From: a virus
Lineage: Duplodnaviria > Heunggongvirae > Uroviricota > Caudoviricetes
Strand: one strand, 5' to 3'
DNA length: 15,135 bases
Virus record (IMG/VR): IMGVR_UViG_2721755498_000002
Made by a program: the position numbers and the translations under genes. Positions within the stretch are counted from its first letter, which is position 1. Every line of letters starts with the position of its first letter. Positions 2,494 to 15,135 of the stretch are shown piece by piece. The notes beneath the pieces were generated by a model. That model searched no databases. It worked only from the letters and a program-made list of their open reading frames with translations, and was not told the origin of the DNA.

Positions 2494-2753
2494 GTAATCC
2501 GCCTCCTTTGGATCAATACGAGTTGATATTTGTTACAAAACATTTTGATTTTATCAGATTTTTTTTATTGATAAGTGTCAATTGATTAGCTGGTATAGAG
2601 TGAGACATATAGAAGGGCAGATCTGTATCAGTAGTGATGCAAAAATCCCACAGTTTCATGGAATTTTTGCATTTAGAGCCGTGAGATAGGGTGCCTTATC
2701 GACCTTACCCTGGCAACCGATTGACGGGGGATTACTCCCCCGTCGCGGTTTCC

Positions 2754-2894
2754 TTACTGCTTACACTGTAAGAACGCCGCAAACTCCGCTCCCCAGAAAC
2801 TCATCCGTATTTCGCACAGCGAACCGTGCAACATCCAGATGATGAGGATTACCGTCACGCAGAACGTGATGGCTGTAAGCGATTTTTGCGACAT
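2754..2894 (-). CDS. hok: Hok/Gef-family type I toxin (46 aa: MSQKSLTAITFCVTVILIIWMLHGSLCEIRMSFWGAEFAAFLQCKQ)
   Basis: Hand translation of the - strand. Single N-terminal transmembrane helix followed by the SLCE[IL] and E[LFV]AAF[LM] motifs typical of Hok proteins (compare HokA ...WMIRDSLCELHIKQESYELAAFLACK... as recalled). AAGGAG RBS 8 nt upstream. GC-rich hairpin (2723-2744) just downstream. Not in the ORF track because it is under 60 aa. Confidence 0.7.
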   Translation of the reverse strand: MSQKSLTAITFCVTVILIIWMLHGSLCEIRMSFWGAEFAAFLQCKQ

Positions 2895-3084
2895 AGCACT
2901 TGCTCCTTTTCCGGAGAGGCGCTAACCTTTCACTTGCTTAGGGTAGACGGTTAGGGCCTCGGTTAAACAAAAGTGTTTTCCGGGGCCTTTCCACATCTGG
3001 CCTTCGGGTATTCCCTCCGACCATCAGCCGAAAGGCACCCGCGCGTAATCTATCGCTTTTTTGTTACTCCGGCAATTCTGCTTG

Positions 3085-3345
3085 TTAATTCTGAGGTAAA
3101 GGCAAACTCATCTGATTGTTTCCCCTGTGTGAAGCTGGTAGCACATGCCACGGGATACCTTCTGAAGAGTGAACGCCGGAGGCGTGTTTCGATGTGAATT
3201 TATGGAAAGCTTCCAGTGTTGAGAAGCATACGCCGCATTCCAGATTGTTACACTGGTAATACTTTTGCCGCACGGTGTTTGAATCATTTTCCGGACGACT
3301 TGTGCGGATACGGGCAGATGCGCCACAAAGCGGACAACGGAACAT
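3085..3345 (-). CDS. ogr: Ogr/Delta-family zinc-finger late transcription activator
   Basis: N-terminus MFRCPLCGASARIRTSR...YYQCNNLECGVCF matches the C-x2-C-x22-C-x4-C Ogr zinc finger (P2 Ogr begins MFHCPLCQHAAHARTSR as recalled). AGGGAGG RBS 5 nt upstream of the ATG. Confidence 0.85.
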   Translation of the reverse strand: MFRCPLCGASARIRTSRPENDSNTVRQKYYQCNNLECGVCFSTLEAFHKFTSKHASGVHSSEGIPWHVLPASHRGNNQMSLPLPQN

Positions 3346-3428
3346 AGCGACCTCCCTTAACGTGGTGTTGCCGCTATTCTAGATTGTACGATCCCTAATT
3401 CCAACTAACAGCTCGCTCTGTGCGAAGA

Positions 3429-3501
3429 GTGAAAATTGAACTTTCAATAGTTGTTGAACTTCCATACATCCAATGTGAAAATTCATACGTTCATAATAGT
3501 T
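3429..3501 (+). repeat. two direct repeats (GTGAAAATT...TTCA(A/T)TAGTT) 46 bp apart in the upstream region of the 3537 ORF; possible operator or promoter elements
   Basis: Exact 9-mer GTGAAAATT at 3429-3437 and 3475-3483, each followed by a similar TTCAATAGTT / TTCATAATAGTT segment. The region is AT-rich, so chance cannot be excluded. Confidence 0.3.
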
Positions 3502-3536
3502 AAAATTTAAAATATTGTATATCAGGTGAATAAAGC

Positions 3537-4559
3537 ATGGGAAGAGATATAACGCTGTACCCTAAAAAAGCAACTAGAAACGAACTTAAAAATTACCTTG
3601 AAAATTTAGGTTTTAAAAGGTGTAAACATTTGTGGGAATGGCCCCAAGGAACGTTGAATTACTCTTGGTTTGATGATACGGACTTCAAATCTACAGATGG
3701 AGTTTCGGCTGATATATATCCTGTTTCAAATGACGAATTACACATATCTGGTAATAAATGGGCATTGCATGTGCGTAATTTATATAGCGCTAGTTGGCAT
3801 GATGTAAAAATGCTTAATGATGTTCTAAAAGGCGCAAGGAGTCTTTTTGGTGGAACACTTATAGGTGATTATGGGAAAAATAGGTACGCTCCTCTATGGA
3901 AGGATTCTAGTAGTCCGATCAGTCGTGGCATTTCTTCAATATTTAATCATGTCCATCATGAGATTTCCGCTGTTAAACATGCCTTACCTGAACCTTCTAT
4001 TAAATTAAACCTACCGGAAGATGGCGGTTTATCCGAATACTTTGATTACATGCAATGTATGGATCCCAGTAGAGTTATATATAATGGATTAGTACCTTTT
4101 GCGGTTGCTATGTTTGAATACTTTTTCTCTAGAGCTTTTCAAATACTTATAAAGTACGATCCTTTCGCAATAGCAAAAAGAACATCGTATAAGCAAAAAG
4201 TTGATTTTGATATTCTGCTTGAGATAGAGAAAGGAAATATTTCAATAGAAAGTGTTATTGCAAGAAATTACACTTTTCAAAACTTAACCCACCTAAACAA
4301 AGCATATAAAGAGTGGCTGGATATAGATGTGAGAGCGATTCTTTATAAGAAAAAAAGAATTGGAAAATCAGTTGATTTTCTTGAGAATCGAATTTCTGAA
4401 ATCATACAATATAGACATGGGATAGTTCATCACTTTGAGTTGGATAGGACCTTAAATCGGGATGGATATATTCATATATTAGATGCGATAGAAAAAAGCA
4501 TAATTGAATTTATCCATTACATAGAAGGCAAATACAAATTTAAATTAAATGCGTATTAA
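3537..4559 (+). CDS. hypothetical 340-aa protein; AT-rich cargo gene with a C-terminal HEPN-like R-x4-H motif (YRHGIVHH, residues 292-299); candidate abortive-infection or defence protein
   Basis: Long uninterrupted ORF with strongly AT-biased codon usage, unlike the flanking phage genes. Sits between ogr and D on the opposite strand. Lys/Ile/Asn/Tyr-rich composition. No family recognised by eye. Confidence 0.7.
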   Translation: MGRDITLYPKKATRNELKNYLENLGFKRCKHLWEWPQGTLNYSWFDDTDFKSTDGVSADIYPVSNDELHISGNKWALHVRNLYSASWHDVKMLNDVLKGARSLFGGTLIGDYGKNRYAPLWKDSSSPISRGISSIFNHVHHEISAVKHALPEPSIKLNLPEDGGLSEYFDYMQCMDPSRVIYNGLVPFAVAMFEYFFSRAFQILIKYDPFAIAKRTSYKQKVDFDILLEIEKGNISIESVIARNYTFQNLTHLNKAYKEWLDIDVRAILYKKKRIGKSVDFLENRISEIIQYRHGIVHHFELDRTLNRDGYIHILDAIEKSIIEFIHYIEGKYKFKLNAY

Positions 4560-4587
4560 GCAATCAACCTTACATAGGGATGACAAA

Positions 4588-4625
4588 GTCCGCTTCTGAC
4601 ACGGAGCGGACCGTCGTTTATGTTT
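4588..4625 (+). terminator. candidate intrinsic terminator (GTCCGCT-loop-AGCGGAC followed by a T-rich stretch) downstream of the 340-aa ORF
   Basis: 7-bp stem at 4588-4594 / 4605-4611 with a 10-nt loop, followed by CGTCGTTTATGTTTAATT. Located between convergent genes. Confidence 0.35.
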
Positions 4626-4679
4626 AATTCTATACTGTAAACTTGCCAGTTTAAGTTTGAGCTAATATGTCTAAGTTGC

Positions 4680-5789
4680 TCACTCTGTTTCTGCTATCCA
4701 TTCCGGGATTTTTGCCTCAAGCTCAAGCTGTGTGGTAAAGCCGCTGTTATCAATGGTGTGCTCGGCTTTCGCAATAATCCAGTCCTGATTATCAATCTCG
4801 CTTTTAAATCCTGTTACCGTGCCATGCATTTCGGGGTAGAGTTCTGCACGTCCACGCACCAGCGTGATGGAAAATAATGCGGCTCCGCGTTGTAGCTGCT
4901 GCCACTTTGCCGCCGCTGCGCGTCTTGCTGCCTGCTCGTTCTGATAAGTCTTGCGTAACACAAACACATTGCCTTCCGCGCCTTCCATATAATCACCTTC
5001 ACGGCTGCTGCTTTTCTCCTTTTTGGGTTTTGGCGGTTTGCGGCGTTTCACGCTGACTTTTTTCTTTTTCCCGTAATTAAGATCAAGCCAGTAAGCGCGT
5101 ACCCCCGTATACGCCTCGCGGTCAGCAATGCGGAACTGATGGCGATCGCCGCTGCTGCGTGTGATGGCGAACGATGGCAACGGCTGGCCCTGTGCGTTCA
5201 CGCCACCGCCGGGCATGATGAATAACAGATTACCGCTTTTTACCGTGGTGATTGCGCCCAGCATTTCCGCCATGCGCGTAAGGAAGGACATGTCGCTTTC
5301 TTCAGTCTGGTCGGCGTGGTCGATTTCGATATCCATCAGCATTTCGCTGATTTGCGGTTTCAGGCTGTACCGATGAGCGATGGCGGATACCACACGTTCA
5401 ACGTTCACATCATGCCAGGACGCCTCACGTTTAACATTAAATTCATCCCGAAAATCTGCGCTTCTGGCTGAAACAGTCAGCCTGTCCGGCGGTCCTTCGT
5501 GAGCGATTTCATCAACAATGTAAGTGCCTTTTTCTGTCAGCGGTTCCCCTTTCCAGCCAATGAGAACCGTCAGACGCGCGCCCCGTGGCGGTAGCTGCAA
5601 CTGGCCATCGGCATCATCCAGCGTGATGGTGAGCTGGTCCGCCTCAAATCCCCGGTTGTCGGTCAGTGACAGGCTCATCAGGCGTTCTGCCACGCCGGAC
5701 AGCGTTTTACCCTCGGCGAGAATATCAAAATCCGGCATTTTCACGGGGTCTGTGCCCTGACTGAGCAATTGCATGGTGGTGTCGGTCAT
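4680..5789 (-). CDS. D: P2 gpD-like tail protein (late control gene D family)
   Basis: The 413-aa ORF is trimmed here to the ATG at 5789-5787 (MTDTTMQLL...), which has a GGGAGGG RBS. Size of about 370 aa, the C-terminal GFKSEIDNQDWIIAKAEHTIDNSGFTTQLELE region, and the context next to a P2-like tail module fit gpD. Assignment is from memory of the family, not alignment. Confidence 0.75.
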   Translation of the reverse strand: MTDTTMQLLSQGTDPVKMPDFDILAEGKTLSGVAERLMSLSLTDNRGFEADQLTITLDDADGQLQLPPRGARLTVLIGWKGEPLTEKGTYIVDEIAHEGPPDRLTVSARSADFRDEFNVKREASWHDVNVERVVSAIAHRYSLKPQISEMLMDIEIDHADQTEESDMSFLTRMAEMLGAITTVKSGNLLFIMPGGGVNAQGQPLPSFAITRSSGDRHQFRIADREAYTGVRAYWLDLNYGKKKKVSVKRRKPPKPKKEKSSSREGDYMEGAEGNVFVLRKTYQNEQAARRAAAAKWQQLQRGAALFSITLVRGRAELYPEMHGTVTGFKSEIDNQDWIIAKAEHTIDNSGFTTQLELEAKIPEWIAETE

Positions 5790-5946
5790 CTGTTCCCTCC
5801 CTGTGCGGCATGGTCGCATGTGCGTGCGGAGGGGGTTACTGCTTTTTGTTGTCGCCGTGGCGGGAGAATAGCGCAGGGGTGAGATTACGCGCGTGGTGGG
5901 TGATGATTGTTGCTGAATCATTTAACGGATACAAGGGGCTGAAGCT

Positions 5947-7131
5947 ATGAGTGAAACTCGTTTTCATGGTGCCCGTGTTACGGAAAATACCGACCTGGTA
6001 ACAGCGATTAACGATGTTGATTCCAGCGTTATCGGTATCGTGGCAACGGCGGATGATGCGGACGCGAAGCTGTTCCCGCTGAACAAGCCCACATTGCTGA
6101 CCCGCGTCAATGACGTGCTGGGAAAATGCGGAACAACGGGGACGCTTTATCGTGCGCTTAAGGCCATCGCAGACCAGGTGAGCACAAAGGTGATCGTCGT
6201 TCGCGTGGCTGAACACAAAGAAGAAGACGGAAAGACGCAGGATCAACTGGTTATCGGTGGTTCTGAGGATGACGGCAGCTATACGGGGATGTATGCGCTG
6301 CTTGTTGCAGAGCAGGATGAAAGCATCGGATACCGTCCGCGTATTCTGGCCGCGCCAGAGCTGGACACGGAGGCTGTAACAAAATCCCTGTGCGTGATTG
6401 CAGGTAAACTGCGCGCGTTTGTGTATGCCTCATGTCACGGCTGTAACACGATGGCTGAGGCGATTACCTATCGCCAGAAATTCAACGAACGTGAGGTGAT
6501 GCTCTTATGGCCGGACTTCATCGCCTACAACCCGAAAAGTGGCAAAAACGAAACGTTCTCCGCGCCTGCCTATGCGTGCGGCCTTCGTGCGTACATTGAC
6601 CATGAGCAGGGGTGGCACAAATCACTGTCCAACGTTCCGGTTAAAAATGTGCTGGGGATGTCGAGGCATGTGTTCTGGTCGTTGCAGGCCGAAGACAGCG
6701 ATGCCAACAGCCTCAACAACAAAGAAATCACGACCATTATTCGTCGCAACGGGTTCCGCTTCTGGGGCAACCGCACACCGGAAACGAACGCCTACATCTT
6801 TGAGGTGTATACCCGAACCGCACAGGTGCTGGCTGATTCAATTGCGGAAGCGCAGTTTGAAACCATCGACAGTCCACTGACGCCTGCGAACGTGAAGGAT
6901 GTTATCAGTGCCATCAGGGCAAAACTGGATTCGCTGGTTACTGCCGGGAAACTGATTGGCGCGGAGTGCTGGTATGACGTGGTGGATAACGGCACCACGG
7001 ATTTACGTCAGGGGCGTGTGCGTATTCGCTACAAATATACGCCCGTTCCGCCACTGGAAGACATGGAGCTTTACCAGACGTTTACTGATGAATTCTTTGG
7101 TCCCGCATTTGCGGTGCTGGGAGGTGCCTGA
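5947..7131 (+). CDS. FI: contractile tail sheath protein (P2 gpFI family)
   Basis: 394 aa. Motifs DADA..FPLNKP, KLRAF, QGWHK, IRRNGFRFWGNRT, YTRTAQV and YTPVPPLE match the P2 FI sheath as recalled. Stop overlaps the FII start (ATGA). Confidence 0.9.
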   Translation: MSETRFHGARVTENTDLVTAINDVDSSVIGIVATADDADAKLFPLNKPTLLTRVNDVLGKCGTTGTLYRALKAIADQVSTKVIVVRVAEHKEEDGKTQDQLVIGGSEDDGSYTGMYALLVAEQDESIGYRPRILAAPELDTEAVTKSLCVIAGKLRAFVYASCHGCNTMAEAITYRQKFNEREVMLLWPDFIAYNPKSGKNETFSAPAYACGLRAYIDHEQGWHKSLSNVPVKNVLGMSRHVFWSLQAEDSDANSLNNKEITTIIRRNGFRFWGNRTPETNAYIFEVYTRTAQVLADSIAEAQFETIDSPLTPANVKDVISAIRAKLDSLVTAGKLIGAECWYDVVDNGTTDLRQGRVRIRYKYTPVPPLEDMELYQTFTDEFFGPAFAVLGGA

Positions 7132-7643
7132 TGGCTGTACCAAAACATCTTCGCTTTTTTACGTTGTTTGTGGATGGTGAAAACGAAGTGGGTAAAGTGA
7201 CATCCGTCACGCCGCCCAAACTGACGCGCAAAACCGACAGCTATCGTGGTGGTGGCATGATGGGGGCGGTAAGTATTGATCTCGGTCTGGACGACTCCGC
7301 GCTTGATGCGAGTTTTGTTATGGGGGGAGCTGTTCGTGCGCTGTTCCTTAAATATGGCGGCACGATTGACGGCACGCTGCTGCGTTTTGCGGGTGAATAC
7401 TACACCGATGCAGAAAGCGATCTGTATGAAATCGAGATGCGCGGACGTGTGACGGAAATTGATATGGGGGAAGCCAAACAGGGCGAAGCCACATCACACA
7501 CTTACGCTGTCAAAAACACCTACTACAAGCTGAGCGTTAACGATCGCCCGCTGTGGGAAATCGACCTGTTGAACCACATCTACCGGAAGGACGGCAAGGA
7601 CATTGTGCCTGACCGTATCCGTTCCGCGCTTGGGCTTGGCTGA
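7131..7643 (+). CDS. FII: tail tube protein (P2 gpFII family)
   Basis: 170 aa, immediately after the sheath gene with a translationally coupled start. Size and position are typical of FII. Confidence 0.85.
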   Translation: MAVPKHLRFFTLFVDGENEVGKVTSVTPPKLTRKTDSYRGGGMMGAVSIDLGLDDSALDASFVMGGAVRALFLKYGGTIDGTLLRFAGEYYTDAESDLYEIEMRGRVTEIDMGEAKQGEATSHTYAVKNTYYKLSVNDRPLWEIDLLNHIYRKDGKDIVPDRIRSALGLG

Positions 7644-7698
7644 TAAGTAATATGCAGGCGGCGCAGTGCGTCGCCTCTGACTGAAAAGGAGACAACTG

Positions 7699-8073
7699 AT
7701 GAAAGACATCGATACTGAAACCCGGAATAACACCGTGGCGGATGATGTGACGGCAGGTGAGGATATGGCTGTCGAACGTGGCGTAAAACTGACCCGACCA
7801 ATTGAGCGTGGTGGCGAAAAAATCACGTATGTGGAGATCACCGGGGCTATTGAGCAGGCTGGATCCCTGCGTGGTCTGTCGCTGTCTGATGTGCTGAATC
7901 TGAAAGCGGATACCATGTTCACGCTGTTGCCTCGCGTGACCTCGCCACGACTGGATGAAGTGATGATTAAAAAAATGTCGTCACGCGATTTTATTCAGTT
8001 GTGCGCTGTGGCTGTAAATTTTATGAGCGAGCCAGACTCTGGCGCGAAGAGCGTGCAGGAGACGGCAGCGTAA
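7699..8073 (+). CDS. E: tail assembly chaperone gpE
   Basis: 124-aa ORF with AAGGAG RBS, located between the tube and tape-measure genes. An overlapping -1 frame ORF follows, as in P2 E/E'. Confidence 0.8.
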   Translation: MKDIDTETRNNTVADDVTAGEDMAVERGVKLTRPIERGGEKITYVEITGAIEQAGSLRGLSLSDVLNLKADTMFTLLPRVTSPRLDEVMIKKMSSRDFIQLCAVAVNFMSEPDSGAKSVQETAA

Positions 8074-8237
8074 TCACCCTGGTGTGCTTTGAGCACATCG
8101 AAGATCTGGTGGCGGATATTGCCGCCATTTTTAACTGGTCGCCCGCCGAAATCTTCATGATGACGCCCGGCGAAGTGGTTAGCTGGCGCGAGCGGGCGGC
8201 ACTTCGCAGCGGGAATGCAGATAATGAAGACTCTTGA
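7699..8237 (+). CDS. E+E': tail assembly chaperone E+E' made by programmed -1 ribosomal frameshift (candidate slip sites A7 at 7969-7975 or AAATTTT at 8016-8022)
   Basis: The -1 frame opens at 7971, right after a TAA at 7968-7970, and runs to the TGA at 8235-8237, overlapping the T start. The E frame stops at 8071-8073. Both heptamer-like sites fall in the overlap. P2-like phages make E+E' this way. Confidence 0.6.
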
Positions 8238-11031
8238 TATCCGGGTCGCTTTCAGCGCCGTTGACAGGCTGACCCGGCCTGCCGAAAACGCCCGCCGCCT
8301 GATGGGGCAGTTTGGTGACTCCATCCAGCGAACGCAGGGGGCGCTCAAAAATCTCGAGCGTCAGGCGCGTTCATTTGAGCGCGCCCGTGACGCTGTCAGT
8401 AAAGCGGATGCGGGCATCGTGAAAGCACGACGCCAGCTTAACGCCCTTAATCAGTTACAACGCACGGGTACAGTGCTCAGCGAAAAACAACAAAAGCTGA
8501 TGCAGCAGTTAAGCACCCGGCTTGAACGCCTGAATGAATCGCGCACACGGGAAATTCAAAAAATGCGGGAGCTTGGCGGAGAGCTGAAACGCCACGGCAT
8601 TTCCCTGACAGGCAGCGATAACACCATCCAGCAGGCCATCAGACGCACCGAACAGTACAACAACCAGCTTGAACGCGAACGGCAGGCGCTTGCGCGTGTA
8701 ACGCGGGCGCGTGAGCGGTATTCGCGCGCGCAGGAAACAGCGGGAAAACTGAAAACAGGTGGTGCACTGGCAATTGGTGCGGCAGCGGCGGGCGGCTATG
8801 CTGCCGGGCGTTTTTTGCAGCCTGCGATCGGGTTCGGCAAAGAGATGTCCCGCGTTCAGGCACTGACGCGAATCGACAAAAACAGCCCGCAGTTTAAGGC
8901 GCTGCGTGAGCAGGCGTTAAAACTTGGCTCTGAAACACAGTTTACTGCGAGTGATGCCGCCAGTGGGCAGAGCTTTCTGGCAATGGCTGGTTTTACTCCG
9001 CAGGCCATTCAGGCCGCATTGCCCGGTGTTCTTAATATGGCGCTGGCAGGTGGCGTCGAACTCGGCGAGACGGCTGATATAGGCTCCAATATCCTCACAC
9101 AGTTCAACCTGACAGCCGATCAAATGGACCGGGTTGGCGATACGCTGACAGCGGCATTCACCCGGACCAATACTGATTTACGCGCGCTGGGCGAAACCAT
9201 GAAGTATACCGGTCCGGTTGCCGCAAAACTTGGTATCAGTCTTGAAGAAGCGGCAGCCATGGCCGGGATGCTTGCCAATAATGGTCTTCGCGGAAGCGAT
9301 GCTGGTACGGCCATGCGCGCAAGTCTGTCCCGCCTTGCATCACCGCCAAAAGCTGCGGCTGATGCGCTGAAAGAGCTGGGAGTGTCAGTTGCTGACGCCA
9401 GAGGCAAAATGCGCCCGATGGAGGATGTGCTGCTTGATCTCTATAAGGCGACACAAAAATACGGACAGGTGGACCAGGTTTCCTTCTTCAAGGACATCGC
9501 CGGAGAAGAGGCGTTCGTTGGTTTGCAGACGCTTGTTGCGGCGGCTGGTTCAGGAGAGCTGCAAAAACTGACCAGAGAATTGCAGGGGGCAAGGGGAGAG
9601 GCCGATCGCGTCGCAAAAGTAATGGCCGATAATCTTGATGGGGACCTGAAAAATCTCGATAGCGCATGGGAAGGTCTTCGTATTCGCATCAGTGATCTGG
9701 TTGACGGTCCGCTGCGTTCTGTCACGCAGTGGCTCACGCGGGTGCTTGAAAAAAGCACCTCGCTGGCGCAGGCCCATCCGGTACTGACGCGCCAGCTACT
9801 GATAGCAGGCGGTGCGTTGCTGGCAATGACTGCAACGATTGGCTCGTTGTCGCTGGTTATTGGGGTGCTTTACGGGAAGCTGGCCACCCTGCGTCTTGGT
9901 TTTGACATTCTTACCCGGTCAATGAATGTCGTCAGGGTGTTGCCTGCGCTGTGGGGAATGGTGACGGGTTCCGTTTCTTTGCTGGGAGGCGCTATCGGGG
10001 CGCTGTTCAGTCCGGTTGGTCTTATCGTGGCTGCGCTTGCCGGAGCTGCCGTTCTTATCTGGAAATACTGGGATCCCATCAGGGCATTTTTTGCCGGGGT
10101 GTTCGGCGGGATTATGGAAAGGCTGACCCCGTTGCGTGAAACCTTTGAACGGTTTGGTCCTGTTTTTGACGCAATCGGAAGCGGGATCAGCCAGGTGTTT
10201 AACTGGTTTAAATCGCTGCTGTCACCGATGGAGTCCAGCAAGGAAACGCTGGATAAATGTACCAGTGCTGGCGAGATATTCGGTAACGTTCTTGGTGGCG
10301 CGCTACAGCTTGTTCTGACGCCTGCAAAAATGTTGCTGGATACGCTGGCGTGGATACTTGAAAAACTCGGTGTGCTTCCGGATGAAGCGGAAAGGGCGAG
10401 AAAGAAAATCGAAGACGCACAGCGTGCGGCCATTCTTCAGGACAAGGTTGCTCTGTTTCAGGGAGACATTGCGAAAATCAATCCGCCGAAGTCTGCGGAA
10501 AATGGCAATGGCACCGGAGGCGATAAACCCAAAGACAACAAACCGCTCACAGACAGCAATACCGGCACGCTACGCAGACTCAGCAAAATTGCTGATAACA
10601 CAGGTAAGCTGGTTGATGAGACAAAAAAACGTGTTGGCCCCGGCGATATTGTCTTTAAGAACCTGCCCCGCGCACTTGCTGTTCGTGGGGAGTGGCAGGA
10701 GCGGAAGATTGCGCAGGTCAGTAAGCCTGCTTCCGCAATCAACATCACACCCGTGGTCCCGGCTCTGCTGCCTCCGGCGCTGGTCCCTGTTGTTGCGGCC
10801 AGCTCCCGCCCGGTGGCGGAGGCCATACGATCGCCAGTGGCATCAGTTCCTGCAACTTCCCGTAACCGGGAGCCTGTTGTCTCCGGATTTGGCGGTGAAA
10901 TTCATGTTCATCTGCATAACGTTGTTACGCAGAATCCCCGCGAACTGGCGAAACTGGTCGGTGAAATGGTCAGGGCAGAGGTGGAACGGCGTGCTCGTGC
11001 CGGACGTGGCAGTTTTTACGATAAAGATTGA
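8215..11031 (+). CDS. T: tail tape measure protein (P2 gpT family)
   Basis: 938-aa ORF with a coiled-coil-rich N-terminal part, a central hydrophobic/Gly-Ala-rich segment and a long C-terminal part. Sits between E/E' and U. The start could be the ATG at 8215 or at 8224. Confidence 0.9.
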   Translation: MQIMKTLDIRVAFSAVDRLTRPAENARRLMGQFGDSIQRTQGALKNLERQARSFERARDAVSKADAGIVKARRQLNALNQLQRTGTVLSEKQQKLMQQLSTRLERLNESRTREIQKMRELGGELKRHGISLTGSDNTIQQAIRRTEQYNNQLERERQALARVTRARERYSRAQETAGKLKTGGALAIGAAAAGGYAAGRFLQPAIGFGKEMSRVQALTRIDKNSPQFKALREQALKLGSETQFTASDAASGQSFLAMAGFTPQAIQAALPGVLNMALAGGVELGETADIGSNILTQFNLTADQMDRVGDTLTAAFTRTNTDLRALGETMKYTGPVAAKLGISLEEAAAMAGMLANNGLRGSDAGTAMRASLSRLASPPKAAADALKELGVSVADARGKMRPMEDVLLDLYKATQKYGQVDQVSFFKDIAGEEAFVGLQTLVAAAGSGELQKLTRELQGARGEADRVAKVMADNLDGDLKNLDSAWEGLRIRISDLVDGPLRSVTQWLTRVLEKSTSLAQAHPVLTRQLLIAGGALLAMTATIGSLSLVIGVLYGKLATLRLGFDILTRSMNVVRVLPALWGMVTGSVSLLGGAIGALFSPVGLIVAALAGAAVLIWKYWDPIRAFFAGVFGGIMERLTPLRETFERFGPVFDAIGSGISQVFNWFKSLLSPMESSKETLDKCTSAGEIFGNVLGGALQLVLTPAKMLLDTLAWILEKLGVLPDEAERARKKIEDAQRAAILQDKVALFQGDIAKINPPKSAENGNGTGGDKPKDNKPLTDSNTGTLRRLSKIADNTGKLVDETKKRVGPGDIVFKNLPRALAVRGEWQERKIAQVSKPASAINITPVVPALLPPALVPVVAASSRPVAEAIRSPVASVPATSRNREPVVSGFGGEIHVHLHNVVTQNPRELAKLVGEMVRAEVERRARAGRGSFYDKD

Positions 11032-11037
11032 GGAGTC

Positions 11038-11532
11038 ATGGCCATGATGATGATCTACGGCATGTTTGTTTTTGAGCTGCGCACATTGCCGCATCAGCAG
11101 TTACAGCAAAACAAAAGCTGGCGGCATGTGAAAAATGAACGCGTTAACCGTTCAGCAAGCTGGCAGTATATCGGCGCAGGTGATGATCGCATCGTGCTTT
11201 CCGGCGTGCTTTATCCTGAAATTACAGGTGGCGAAGTGTCGCTTTCGTTGCTGACCACACAGGCATATACAGGACGCCCCTGGCCTCTGATTGATGGTGT
11301 CGGGCAGATTTACGGCATGTATGTACTGACTGAAACGAATACGACCCGTTCCGAGTTTGATCGCTACGGTAAGGCGAAAAAGATAGAATTTTCACTGACC
11401 CTTGAACGCTGTGATGAGGATTTGCGGGAGCGTCTGCAATCCTCATCGTTCAGTGATATGCTGTCCGGCTTCAAAGATAAGGTCACATCATCCCTTAACA
11501 GCGCGGCCAGTTCAGTTAAAGGACTGTTCTGA
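11038..11532 (+). CDS. U: tail protein gpU
   Basis: 164 aa. MAMMMIYGMFVFELRTLPHQQ...AGVLYPEITGG...WPLIDG..IYGMYV matches P2 gpU as recalled. GAGGAG RBS. Confidence 0.85.
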   Translation: MAMMMIYGMFVFELRTLPHQQLQQNKSWRHVKNERVNRSASWQYIGAGDDRIVLSGVLYPEITGGEVSLSLLTTQAYTGRPWPLIDGVGQIYGMYVLTETNTTRSEFDRYGKAKKIEFSLTLERCDEDLRERLQSSSFSDMLSGFKDKVTSSLNSAASSVKGLF

Positions 11533-11628
11533 TTTTACATTGCCGCTAATACCCTCATATTGGGTAATGGGCGGCTTGTTGTTATATAATATATCGTAGG
11601 TCCTGATAAAACTGTTGAGGTTTCTACT

Positions 11629-12837
11629 TTATAAAGAATTGCTACTTTCTAATTCTGGGTTTCTGGATCTATTTTTACAACCTAAATCCGAGTGGTAATT
11701 CGGTATATCGTTTGTCAAATCTTGTTTGATAGCATTAATTAAGATCATTATGTCGAATTTATGCATATCGTCGCCCCCTTCAGACCTTAGATGTTCGGAT
11801 GTGGTGAGTTGAGTCGCTAATTTGCTGTTTGGCCCCCACACAATATTATTTTCGAATTTTCCTTCATGCATTCTGTTATTATATATACAGTATTGTCTAA
11901 TGTTTAATGCACTGGCTAAATGTACAATGGCAGTATCTACAGTTATAACAAAATCAGCATGGCGAACCAATGCAAATGAACATCCGGCATCAGAAAATGG
12001 AGATAGAGACACATTATCCAATCCATTGTGATTAATCTGTTTTCCCATATTAAAAACTATTGTGTGATATCCCTTAAGGTTATTAAGGTAAGCTAGTACT
12101 TTGTTTATCTGTTCATCAGATAAGGTTCTGCTATTCTGAGAGCCATAAGGGTTAAATATAACTAATTTTTTGTTTTTCTTCCTGAATTCATTTGCAACAA
12201 TATTTGCTGGTTCATATATTTTGTTGTCAAAATTAAGCGCTGCAGCATAATTATTATTTTTTATCTTTAGTAAAGATAAAACTTTTTTCATTCTTTCAGA
12301 TGTGTGAATGGAACGATTATCGATTATATTTGTATCAAAAATAGTTACGGCAGGATGATTAAAACAGATAGAGTGTTTAGGTCTAAGTAAATGTAGTGTT
12401 TGCAATCTGGTTATCGCTGTGTTATCAAAATTTGAGAAGTCAACAACAAGATCTACATTCAGTTTTTTTATCTTTGCTTTTAGTTCGTTAAATTTATTTT
12501 TCTCGTAAGATATAAAGGCATCCACGCCAACAATATCAGTAAAGAGGAATGATACTCTTGAAGGTGCTATCACATATACCACCATACCGGATTTTTGAAG
12601 TTGTTTAATAAACCCTGAGGTAACGATGCCGTCACCAATGGCTTGCATGTGCATGAAAATGCACACTGTTTTATAACTATCCGGCTGTAATGATGTTTTC
12701 CTTCTGTATCGCATTTTTAGAAATGCCAGTCTGGCCTTCGTCTTTATCTTTTTTGTTTTAATATTTCGCTGTCTGTTAAGCTGTTTTAATGATGAAATAA
12801 CATTCATAATGGTACCCTGAAATTCCAAATCACACAT
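11629..12837 (-). CDS. glycosyltransferase family 9 (heptosyltransferase-like) protein with a ~45-aa Lys/Arg-rich N-terminal extension; AT-rich cargo gene
   Basis: GT9 hallmarks: N-terminal Gly-Asp motif (MQAIGDGIV), central KKLVIFNPYGSQNSRTLSDEQ, and C-terminal VITVDTAIVHLASAL (compare WaaC VVSVDTGLSHLTAAL as recalled). Strong AT bias. The true start may be the internal ATG (MNVISS...) at about 12807. Confidence 0.65.
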   Translation of the reverse strand: MCDLEFQGTIMNVISSLKQLNRQRNIKTKKIKTKARLAFLKMRYRRKTSLQPDSYKTVCIFMHMQAIGDGIVTSGFIKQLQKSGMVVYVIAPSRVSFLFTDIVGVDAFISYEKNKFNELKAKIKKLNVDLVVDFSNFDNTAITRLQTLHLLRPKHSICFNHPAVTIFDTNIIDNRSIHTSERMKKVLSLLKIKNNNYAAALNFDNKIYEPANIVANEFRKKNKKLVIFNPYGSQNSRTLSDEQINKVLAYLNNLKGYHTIVFNMGKQINHNGLDNVSLSPFSDAGCSFALVRHADFVITVDTAIVHLASALNIRQYCIYNNRMHEGKFENNIVWGPNSKLATQLTTSEHLRSEGGDDMHKFDIMILINAIKQDLTNDIPNYHSDLGCKNRSRNPELESSNSL

Positions 12838-12901
12838 GTCATCCGAAATGAGCAGGGTACTATATAAAAAACTGGACTACAATGGTTTGAAATGAAAGCC
12901 T

Positions 12902-13501
12902 TTATGCTTGTTTACTCCTTGATTCCACTGGGGAAGCTGGCCACTCAATATCCGGTGCTCTTGATGTATCAACACGGTTCAGCAGCACTCGATACTTCTT
13001 CCAGGCTTCCAGCAACGAGATTTCTTCCTCCGTTGCGATTTCCAGATCTACAGCATCCTGAAGTGGCGCAATATGCTCACTGGCTACCTGCATCAGGCTG
13101 TTTTTTGTTTCTTCTGCCTCCCGGATCCGGAACAGTTTTTCTGCTTCCGTATCCTTCACCCAGGCTGTGCCGTTCCACTTCTGATATTCCCCTTCCGGCG
13201 ACGACCAGGTAACATTTTCCGGTAACGGACCGAGTTCAGAAATAAATAACGCGTCGCCGGAAGCCACGTCATAAACCGTTTTACCACGATGATCTTCAAC
13301 GAGATGCCAAGACGCCCCATCACTGTTGAAAACAGCCACGAAGCCAGCTGGAATATCTGGCGGAGCAATATCAGTACTATTTGCAGGCAGACCTGTATGA
13401 GGTGGAATGTATGCATCACCTTCACCAATAAATTCATTGGTTCCGACCAGCAGATTATAAATTTTTATGGTTCGTGGTTGTTCACTCATTCTGAATGCCA
13501 T
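12902..13501 (-). CDS. tfa: tail fibre assembly protein (Tfa / P2 gpG-like chaperone)
   Basis: 199 aa with the conserved Tfa C-terminus ([30 protein letters not shown]). Start overlaps the stop of the upstream tail-fibre fragment (TAATG). Confidence 0.85.
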
Positions 13502-13744
13502 TATGCAAGCCTCACAATATAGTTAAATGCGATGTTTTTTACGGTGTTTTCCGCGTTGCCATAAGCGGCAATGGTAATGGTGTGTGTGTGCGAACCAATA
13601 GCGAGCGTATGTGTATGCGCACCTATTGCTACTGTGTGAGTATGAGCTCCTGCGCTTAATACGCGATTACTTGCTGTCTTGCTTGTGTTAGTTGCATGCA
13701 TTCCACCACCGGTACCGGGAGTTTCTGCGTATGCTGAAGTATTG
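13501..13744 (-). pseudogene. tail fibre gene, C-terminal fragment only (His-x-His repeats [24 protein letters not shown]); 5' part replaced by IS1
   Basis: The reading frame runs into the IS1 left end at 13745 and the listed Met lies inside IS1. The C-terminal HTHT repeat region is typical of phage tail-fibre distal domains. Confidence 0.8.
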
Positions 13745-13799
13745 GGTGATGCTGCCAACTTACTGATTTAGTGTATGATGGTGTTTTTGAGGTGCTCCA

Positions 13800-14075
13800 G
13801 TGGCTTCTGTTTCTATCAGCTGTCCCTCCTGTTCAGCTACTGACGGGGTGGTGCGTAACGGCAAAAGCACCGCCGGACATCAGCGCTATCTCTGCTCTCA
13901 CTGCCGTAAAACATGGCAACTGCAGTTCACTTACACCGCTTCTCAACCCGGTACGCACCAGAAAATCATTGATATGGCCATGAATGGCGTTGGATGCCGG
14001 GCAACAGCCCGCATTATGGGCGTTGGCCTCAACACGATTTTACGTCACTTAAAAAACTCAGGCCGCAGTCGGTAA
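13800..14075 (+). CDS. insA: IS1 InsA (transposition repressor / N-terminal part of the InsAB' transposase)
   Basis: 91 aa; [43 protein letters not shown] is the canonical InsA sequence. Confidence 0.9.
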
Positions 14076-14497
14076 CCTCGCGCATACAGCCGGGCAGTGA
14101 CGTCATCGTCTGCGCGGAAATGGACGAACAGTGGGGATACGTCGGGGCTAAATCGCGCCAGCGCTGGCTGTTTTACGCGTATGACAGGCTCCGGAAGACG
14201 GTTGTTGCGCACGTATTCGGTGAACGCACTATGGCGACGCTGGGGCGTCTTATGAGCCTGCTGTCACCCTTTGACGTGGTGATATGGATGACGGATGGCT
14301 GGCCGCTGTATGAATCCCGCCTGAAGGGAAAGCTGCACGTAATCAGCAAGCGATATACGCAGCGAATTGAGCGGCATAACCTGAATCTGAGGCAGCACCT
14401 GGCACGGCTGGGACGGAAGTCGCTGTCGTTCTCAAAATCGGTGGAGCTGCATGACAAAGTCATCGGGCATTATCTGAACATAAAACACTATCAATAA
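13994..14497 (+). CDS. insB: IS1 InsB reading frame (expressed as the InsAB' transposase by -1 frameshift at TTAAAAAAC, 14049-14057)
   Basis: 167-aa frame matching canonical IS1 InsB ([27 protein letters not shown]...KHYQ). Confidence 0.85.
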
Positions 14498-14512
14498 GTT
14501 GGAGTCATTACC

Positions 14513-15135
14513 TGAATCGGTTATCCGGAATGTTTACCGTGCTGAAAAAAATAGGTCTTTGGGATGCAGAACATCCAGTAAGGGGAATTTCTATTCTTTA
14601 TGTATCTCCACGAGAAATGGCGTTCCTGTCACAGAAGGAAGTGGCGCTATTGCTCGATACACTGGAGGGCGACTACTGGCGTGTTGCGCTTTTGTGTTTA
14701 AGCACAGGGGCGCGCTGGAGTGAAGCTTGTAAGCTTCGTGGTGAACAGATAGTTCATAACCGTGTAACGTTTCTTGAAACCAAAAATGGCCGGAAGAGAA
14801 CAGTGCCAATTTCGCAGGCAGTTTGTGAGGCGATCAAAACCAGAGAAACAGGCGGCTTGTTTGAGGTGAAGTACCGGGAATTCTGCCTGGCGCTGAAAAG
14901 AGTTAAGCCCGATTTACCAAAAGGCCAGGCTGCACATGTGCTGCGGCATACGTTCGCCAGCCATTTTGTGATGAACGGAGGAAACATTATTGCGCTTCAG
15001 AAGATTCTTGGTCACGCAACCATTCAGCAAACAATGGCATATGCGCATTTTGCACCGGATTACCTGCAGGATGCGGTGGCCCTTAATCCGCTGAAAGGTG
15101 GCGTAAGTGTCCACGCAGTGTCCACGGGGGATTAA
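14513..15135 (+). pseudogene. int: tyrosine recombinase (phage integrase) C-terminal catalytic-domain fragment; N-terminal part removed at the IS1 junction
   Basis: The frame is open straight out of the IS1 right end. It contains the catalytic R (GARWSEA), H-x-x-R (HVLRHTFAS) and Tyr (TMAYAHF) motifs. About 207 codons, where an intact integrase would be around 330-400. Stop is at the window end. Confidence 0.8.

Follow-up and report, generated by a model that had tools for sequence, protein, structure and literature searches.

The window analysed here, a stretch of 15,135 nucleotides, is a decayed P88-like prophage (Xuanwuvirus-type, Peduoviridae) located between flk and pdxB. Its tail genes FI to U are inverted, by strand comparison, relative to the H/G side and to D/ogr alike, and this P88-type order is normal and fixed throughout an entire clade of phages related to P2. 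We are confident in the joint reading of the window as a P88-like remnant with a clade-fixed gene order, which most likely goes back to one old inversion, and with a probable bidirectional late promoter.

Genes were called from the list of open reading frames and from Pfam and PHROGs profile searches. The main features outside the D-FI spacer are as follows.

3085-3345, minus strand: ogr, Ogr/Delta-type zinc-finger late-gene activator (Pfam Ogr_Delta, E 5e-14; 99% identical to the P88 homologue)
3382-4669, plus strand: cargo insertion between ogr and D, not present in P88 (blastn against P88)
4588-4611: GC-rich hairpin where the ends of D and the cargo ORF converge, resembling a terminator on either strand (terminator scan)
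4680-5789, minus strand: gpD, tail/baseplate hub protein, "late control D", 369 aa (Pfam Phage_GPD; phrog_52, 4e-162; 98% identical to P88 D)
5947-7131, plus strand: FI, tail sheath (Pfam sheath domains; 99% identical to P88, 46% to P2 FI)
7131-7643, plus strand: FII, tail tube (Pfam Phage_tube, 2e-45)
7699-8237, plus strand: tail assembly chaperones E, ending at 8073, and E', the -1 frame being open to 8237 (phrog_103, 1e-36; sequence and ORFs; GpE-family CDS annotated in the related loci L001 and L002)
8215-11031, plus strand: T, tape measure protein (Pfam PhageMin_Tail, 2e-57)
11038-11532, plus strand: U, tail protein, closing the F operon in this order (Pfam Phage_P2_GpU, 5e-39)
11537-11579, plus strand: terminator-like hairpin and U-rich stretch right behind U (RNA fold -19.7 kcal/mol, z -1.9)
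11629-12837, minus strand: GT9-family glycosyltransferase cargo gene (Pfam Glyco_transf_9, 26.8 bits against a cutoff of 22; phrog_36326, residues 62-402)
12902-13501, minus strand: tfa (Pfam Caudo_TAP, 1e-43, the entry spanning 12902-13758; ORFs)
13501-13758, minus strand: C-terminal end of the tail-fibre gene, cut off by IS1 (ORFs)
13760-14527: IS1 (IS1 ORFs at 13800-14497; IS1 annotated in the related locus L002)

The divergent layout pointed out in a preliminary description of this DNA is thus confirmed, with FI-FII-E/E'-T-U at 5947-11532 on the plus strand and D, ogr, the GT9 gene, tfa and the fibre fragment on the minus strand. The start of D is placed at 5789 according to annotated homologues, and the 413-aa ORF reaching to 5921 is an over-extension. 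A slippery heptamer, A_AAT_TTT, lies at 8016-8022 within E, and by analogy with P2 and 186 we infer an E/E' frameshift. The only match of an Rfam scan of the window is IS009, inside tfa.

The surviving phage genes are ogr, D, FI to U, tfa, the fibre fragment and part of int. The baseplate, head, lysis and replication modules of a complete genome, on which the ICTV genus criterion of whole-genome identity relies, are gone, hence the window is the remnant of such a phage and no complete member. Compared with P88, the losses due to IS1 cover the greater part of the tail-fibre gene, a portion of int, and the genes for baseplate, lysis, head and replication. The integrase is just 50% identical to that of P88 and targets the flk-pdxB site. 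Since the prophage is defective, the promoters in it may no longer matter.

In a blastn comparison of the window with P88, homology is limited to 2683-3381 and 4670-11539. The insertion between ogr and D holds a low-GC ORF of 340 aa (3537-4559) that weakly resembles HEPN (RiboL-PSP; Pfam 22.5 bits, below the cutoff) and has no match in PADLOC, PHROGs or NCBIfam. At the other end the homology stops at 11539, and in P88 the equivalent place behind U is taken by a clean bidirectional terminator. The GT9 gene, with a GC content of about 0.33 and a true start probably near 12650, occupies the slot which in the relatives P88 and L001 holds an invertase and an invertible fibre segment.

Between these limits the window and P88 (KP063541), a plaque-forming phage (PMC5285337), form one colinear block from D to U, 92.8% identical over 6880 bp (window 4670-11539); the hok-ogr part is 94.7% identical over 700 bp. 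A phage database search gives 93.3% identity to P88. The P88 genome reads V W J I H G / G' H' / invertase / U T E' E FII FI (opposite strand) / D / ogr. The order and strands of ogr, D, FI, FII, E/E', T and U are the same in the window, as are the 157-bp D-FI spacer with a dyad within it and the position of hok beside ogr. The window thus follows the P88 arrangement, H and G side, then U to FI on the opposite strand, then D and ogr, with the GT9 gene in place of the invertase. Citrobacter PhiSM, which forms plaques and lysogenises (PMC6456863), matches the ogr-to-U stretch of the window at 94.7%, and the other records of Xuanwuvirus, a genus that includes P884B11 and PhiR44_2, are colinear with the window over ogr to U.

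The order also extends to more distant phages, namely SEN5 (Senquatrovirus), Kp4848-1 (Reipivirus), Kp4878-3 (Reginaelenavirus) and Serratia KSP20, where FI is 55-71% identical to that of the window. SEN4/SEN5, the Klebsiella phages of Reipivirus and Reginaelenavirus and KSP20 share with the window the inverted order and one central dyad in the D-FI spacer, while they differ from it in cargo, and SEN5 has no invertase. Xuanwuvirus, Senquatrovirus, Reipivirus and Reginaelenavirus are ICTV-classified genera with this order. The preliminary description had offered, as one option, a distinct and undescribed P2-like gene order; distinct it is, but in the databases it is not undescribed.

The D-FI junction, probed with window positions 5400-6400 and counted when at least 80% of the probe was covered in one place, is present in 1355 of 5426 complete E. 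coli genomes, about a quarter. A synthetic colinear U-to-D junction is found in none of the 1412 genomes that carry both halves. Among IMG/VR loci, 77 of the 79 informative ones are inverted, with FI 54-100% identical to the window, and the sole two colinear loci have an FI that is 50% identical. The presence of the junction in 1355 finished genomes means that the order is neither chance nor an assembly artefact.

These counts bear on the explanation put forward at the outset, namely that in this remnant the FI-U block was recently inverted in place and D thereby lost its late transcription. It draws on an order unlike that of P2 and 186 and on a prophage otherwise decayed, with IS1 and deletions. 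We consider it very improbable, since functional phages and the 1355 complete E. coli genomes have identical junctions, and a colinear version is absent among the close relatives (0 of 1412 genomes). Many functional phages with the divergent order are just what the preliminary description had itself named as telling against a local inversion, and the check for the arrangement in relatives which it proposed finds it in P88, PhiSM, the more distant genera and 77 of 79 IMG/VR loci. The boundaries carry no inverted repeats either: between 5790-5946 and 11533-11628 the longest exact match is 6 nt, equalled in 192 of 200 shuffles. The related claim that D is stranded without a late promoter is at odds with a conserved Ogr-type dyad and a -10 element which are predicted next to D. 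Misassembly of the contig across repeats has nothing in its favour except the unusual order; it can practically be dismissed, with the order recurring in isolated phages and in over 1300 genomes that were finished independently, and with no repeats at the block boundaries.

The FI-U block might also be switchable, flipped by the neighbouring Hin/Cin-type DNA invertase of the relatives, whose serine invertase gene immediately adjoins the U end in P88 and L001. However, the crossover sites of P88 number exactly two (0 and 2 mismatches to each other), and it is the tail-fibre segment that they bracket. A search for a Hin/Gin/Cin/Pin-type pair of inverted crossover sites of about 26 bp at the block ends finds none, the best matches, with 11-13 mismatches in 26 positions, being no better than background. 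Both orientations would be expected among close relatives of a switching block, but none is colinear and a single orientation is seen (1355 against 0 genomes; 77 of 77 close IMG/VR relatives), and the window holds no invertase. We therefore give such switching hardly any weight and retain the clade-fixed order.

This order is known from databases and ordinary, and no local rearrangement is involved. Neither the papers on P88, PhiSM, SEN4/5 and the Serratia PP4 prophage nor a survey of P2-like viruses from 2026 mention inversion, orientation or gene order, and a broader literature search on rearrangement returned unrelated cases alone, such as Smp131.

The most likely origin of the clade order is a single old inversion of pF-FI..U at the base of the clade. 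We suggest one event because the split by sheath identity is clean and there are three colinear outgroups, P2, 186 and Burkholderia phi52237, which would have kept the ancestral order. The inversion would have split the F operon of P2, so that FI-FII-E/E'-T-U would now close at the terminator behind U, while D and then ogr would form a separate transcription unit in the opposite direction. Both units would start from one compact bidirectional late promoter, which is predicted in the 157-bp D-FI spacer from the following elements.

5810-5818, minus strand: predicted pD -10 with TGn extension, TGcGACCAT (dyad-anchored alignment)
5850-5867: Ogr-type activator dyad TGT-N12-AGA, TTGTTGTCGCCGTGGCGGGAGA (comparison with P88 and P2 sites)
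5902-5907, plus strand: predicted pF -10 hexamer GATGAT (offset equal to that of P2 pF and pO, which have annotated starts)

The consensus of the activator site is TGT-N12-ACA, and the P2 promoters PP, PO, PV and PF depend on Ogr (PMC3931495). An exact search of the window for TGT-N12-ACA gives three matches, at chance level, none of them in the D-FI spacer. The dyad was found by way of the P88 P-O spacer and the annotated P2 sites, allowing A(C/G)A; it agrees with five of the six consensus positions, with AGA in place of ACA. The longer form TTGTTGT-N12-AGA occurs once in the window, and in the 35.8-kb P88 genome it is limited to the P-O and FI-D spacers. One TGT-N12-A(C/G)A dyad is present, with the geometry kept, in 70 of 71 distinct D-FI spacers; the exact consensus is found in 27 of the 71, against 3% of shuffles, and five of six positions in 43.

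The -10-like hexamers begin 35 nt from each edge of the dyad. The predicted start sites lie at about 5803 leftward and about 5914-5920 rightward, 111 bp apart if counted from about 5914, with the dyad centre about 55 bp upstream of each; the predicted leader of D is short, about 14 nt. A generic sigma-70 scan finds nothing in the spacer, as expected of activator-dependent promoters without a -35 element. This one dyad (5850-5867) probably serves both divergent promoters, as predicted from motif, conserved spacing and homology with the mapped P2 promoters.

Alternatively, D may be driven by a promoter of its own, independent of Ogr, or by read-through, with the dyad acting for pF alone. The TGn extension of the D-side element, able to work without an activator, and the asymmetric extension of the left half of the dyad (TTTTGTTGT) are in line with this. 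We regard it as unlikely, given that the D-side hexamer keeps the 35-nt offset of the mapped pP of P2 even in relatives with FI 54-83% identical, that the annotation of P2 pP/pO shows the same two-way layout around one site, and that D is a structural late protein required along with FI to U. Returning to the shared dyad, we somewhat favour the idea that the old inversion was tolerated, or became fixed, because the symmetric pF dyad was recruited both ways, which would give a pP/pO-like pD/pF pair controlling D apart from FI to U in several genera of Peduoviridae. No description of such a pD/pF architecture was found in the literature searched.

It follows that P2 and 186 should not be the sole annotation templates for P2-like prophages. 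As roughly one in four complete E. coli genomes carries the P88-type order, a divergent D/FI pair is no flag for rearrangement or misassembly. The clade is also a naturally occurring case of an operon broken up by inversion, with both divergent promoters apparently served by a single symmetric activator site.

The F operon of P2 and 186 runs FI FII E E' T U D, then ogr/B, under pF/pJ, with D directly 3' of U and co-transcribed. In the window, by contrast, D diverges from FI and the U end (11532) faces the GT9 gene instead of D. The proteins of P88 and P2 are nevertheless homologous (FI 46%, FII 42%, U 46% and D 49% identical), and the window shares with P2 and 186 the predicted E/E' frameshift arrangement, an Ogr-type activator and a putative promoter element of the TGT-N12-ACA type with equal spacing. 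The closest likeness for the predicted pD/pF pair is P2 pP/pO, where the annotated starts (3016 and 3127) flank one activator site, each 47 nt from the dyad edge and 111 bp from one another. A single dyad between divergent late genes, a -10 element 35 nt from each edge and starts 111 bp apart are common to both; in P2 the site lies between P and O and the starts are annotated, whereas in the window it lies between D and FI and the starts are predicted.

The map of the window, built from the ORF listing and profile searches, is as follows.

1-996, - strand: flk
1264-2156, - strand: TagO/VasI-like gene, frameshifted
2161-2493, - strand: zinc-ribbon gene
3085-3345, - strand: ogr
3537-4559, + strand: HEPN-like ORF, low GC
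4680-5789, - strand: gpD
5947-7131, + strand: FI, sheath
7131-7643, + strand: FII, tube
7699-8237, + strand: E/E'
8215-11031, + strand: T
11038-11532, + strand: U
11629-~12650, - strand: GT9 glycosyltransferase, GC about 0.33
12902-13501, - strand: tfa
13501-13758, - strand: tail-fibre C-terminus, cut by IS1
~13760-14527, + strand: IS1
14530-15135, + strand: int, C-terminal part (201 codons)

Hence, the strands were described correctly in the preliminary description, with FI-U opposite to D and ogr. The D start at 5789 is the equivalent one in annotated homologues, and the 413-aa ORF reaching 5921 over-extends the gene. In E, the slippery heptamer A_AAT_TTT at 8016-8022 and the -1 frame, open to 8237 and encoding a GpE-family C-terminus, fit the E/E' frameshift that is conserved in P2-like tails.

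The divergence of D and ogr from FI-U had been read as a local inversion or a possible misassembly. The arrangement is not local: functional phages normally have this order, and many E. coli chromosomes carry it as well. A search of the phage collection found P88 (Xuanwuvirus), Citrobacter PhiSM, P884B11, PhiR44_2, Chuche and 500465-2 to be colinear with window positions 3000-11540. P88 is annotated as V W J I H G (+), G' H' (-), DNA invertase (+), U T E' E FII FI (-), D (+), ogr and hok, and its positions 34443-27593 align by blastn with 4670-11539 of the window as a single block of 92.8% identity. Both P88 and PhiSM form plaques; for P88 the burst size has been measured and the tail is contractile (PMC5285337), and PhiSM is also able to lysogenise K-12 (PMC6456863). 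The order is also common to the more distant SEN5 (Senquatrovirus; FI identity 55%), Kp4848-1 (Reipivirus; 71%), Kp4878-3 (Reginaelenavirus; 68%) and Serratia KSP20 (68%).

The entire window has matches of 97-98% identity, in the identical arrangement, between flk and pdxB of many E. coli chromosomes. The D-FI junction, counted when at least 80% of a 1-kb probe was covered in one place, occurs in 1355 of 5426 complete E. coli genomes, ST131 and O157:H7 among them. An artificial colinear junction, made by fusing the final 400 nt of U with the initial 400 nt of D, was covered as one place in none of the 1412 genomes that hold both halves. The orientation is therefore fixed, which rules out both a misassembly and a flip-flop switch. 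A Hin/Cin-type invertase directly adjoins U in relatives, so that an invertase-driven flip of the FI-U block was worth a test. In P88 there are just two crossover sites, TTATCGAATACCTCGGTTTACAGGAA and a second that differs from it by 2 mismatches, both at the edges of the tail-fibre segment; at the boundaries of the FI-U block the best matches differ at 11-13 of 26 positions, no better than background. As the boundaries hold no crossover sites and the orientation is fixed, we reject the invertase switch. The inverted repeats that might have linked the two boundaries are also absent, the longest exact match being 6 nt, equalled or beaten in 192 of 200 shuffles.

In a survey of IMG/VR loci with a sheath alignment, the inverted order is seen in 77 of 79 informative loci, with FI 54-100% identical to that of the window; FI of the only 2 colinear loci is just 50% identical to it and closer to P2. 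P2, 186 and Burkholderia phi52237 are colinear, and with these three outgroups giving the polarity, the simplest reading is a single ancient inversion in the common ancestor of this sheath clade.

In P2, FI-U and D are transcribed from the late promoter pF, and all four late promoters have TGT-N12-ACA and need Ogr (PMC3931495; P2 annotation). The divergent P2 pair pP and pO has one annotated activator site for both, a dyad at 3063-3080 lying 47 nt from each start (3016 and 3127, 111 bp apart). The 157-bp D-FI spacer of the window holds, at 5846-5867, the motif TTGTTGT-N12-AGA, which P88 has at two sites only across its entire genome, in the P-O and FI-D spacers. One dyad is present in 70 of 71 distinct D-FI spacers of IMG/VR relatives (27 exact TGT-N12-ACA, 43 at 5/6 positions), at a distance from the FI start codon that varies little (72-86 nt), and an exact dyad appears in only 3% of shuffled spacers. 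L042 (IMGVR_UViG_2850808358_000008) stands alone among the relatives: its D-FI gap is 513 bp, with no central dyad detected, and this locus may carry an insertion or a truncated D. With all spacers anchored on the dyad, -10-like hexamers start 35 nt from both its edges: GATGAT or GAATAT on the FI side, at the offset of GAAAAT in P2 pF, and GACCAT or AACCAT, usually preceded by TGn, on the D side. By homology, the window starts are predicted at ~5803 (D, -) and ~5914-5920 (FI, +), 111 bp apart as in pP/pO. This conserved geometry suggests that D is probably expressed from a shared promoter region, with leftward pD and rightward pF. A terminator-like hairpin 3' of U (11537-11579, -19.7 kcal/mol, z -1.9) closes the FI operon, and the equivalent place in P88 is occupied by a clean bidirectional terminator. 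In this clade, leftward pP and pD have an alternating (CG)4-5 block at ~22-30 nt from the edge of the dyad (about -25 to -17), as seen in the D-FI and P-O spacers of the comparison loci L003, L005, L006, L007 and L008 and of IMG/VR loci; rightward pO and pF do not have it, and it is degenerate in the window (5818-5832) and in P88 pD (CCGCACGCAC).

Other features are specific to this window. The HEPN-like cargo gene between ogr and D is an insertion relative to P88 (3382-4669). Its low-GC ORF of 340 aa weakly resembles RiboL-PSP HEPN (22.5 bits, under the Pfam cutoff), has no match in PADLOC, PHROG or NCBIfam, and could encode an uncharacterised defence or toxin function carried by the prophage. 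Phage record 500465-2, which matches the window here without a break, appears to have the gene too. The low-GC GT9 gene (phrog_36326; region 11540-12890) replaces the invertase and invertible fibre segment of P88 and of L001, an annotated relative. It may serve lysogenic conversion by modifying LPS, and its slot is topologically equal to that of the P2 Z/fun gene. The TagO/VasI-like gene, whole in strain PEC389 (298 aa), is split into two ORFs by a frameshift after ...CYDRFF. An Rfam IS009 match (RF02111, 218 bits, 12960-13158, -) lies wholly within the tail-fibre assembly gene. The tail-fibre gene is cut short by IS1, which also directly adjoins int, everything from the fibre gene to mid-int being deleted; the integrase is just 50% identical to that of P88. 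As the window was found to lack baseplate, head, lysis and replication genes, the remnant is unable to make particles. Many E. coli strains retain a flk-pdxB remnant with full-length FI-U, D and ogr, and P88-type tail modules occur in 1379 of the 5426 complete genomes, in up to 3 copies per genome.

Public databases already contain annotated genomes with this gene order from phages that are classified and active in experiments, and the finding is therefore an ordinary one. The papers on P88, PhiSM, SEN4/5 and PP4/KSP20 and the 2026 P2-virus survey leave the order without comment, so that a small new part lies in the proposed shared pD/pF promoter. We identify the locus as the remnant of a Xuanwuvirus-type prophage. 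It is not a canonical P2 F operon, because its D is not downstream of U, and it agrees with the P88-like phages in both gene order and identity.
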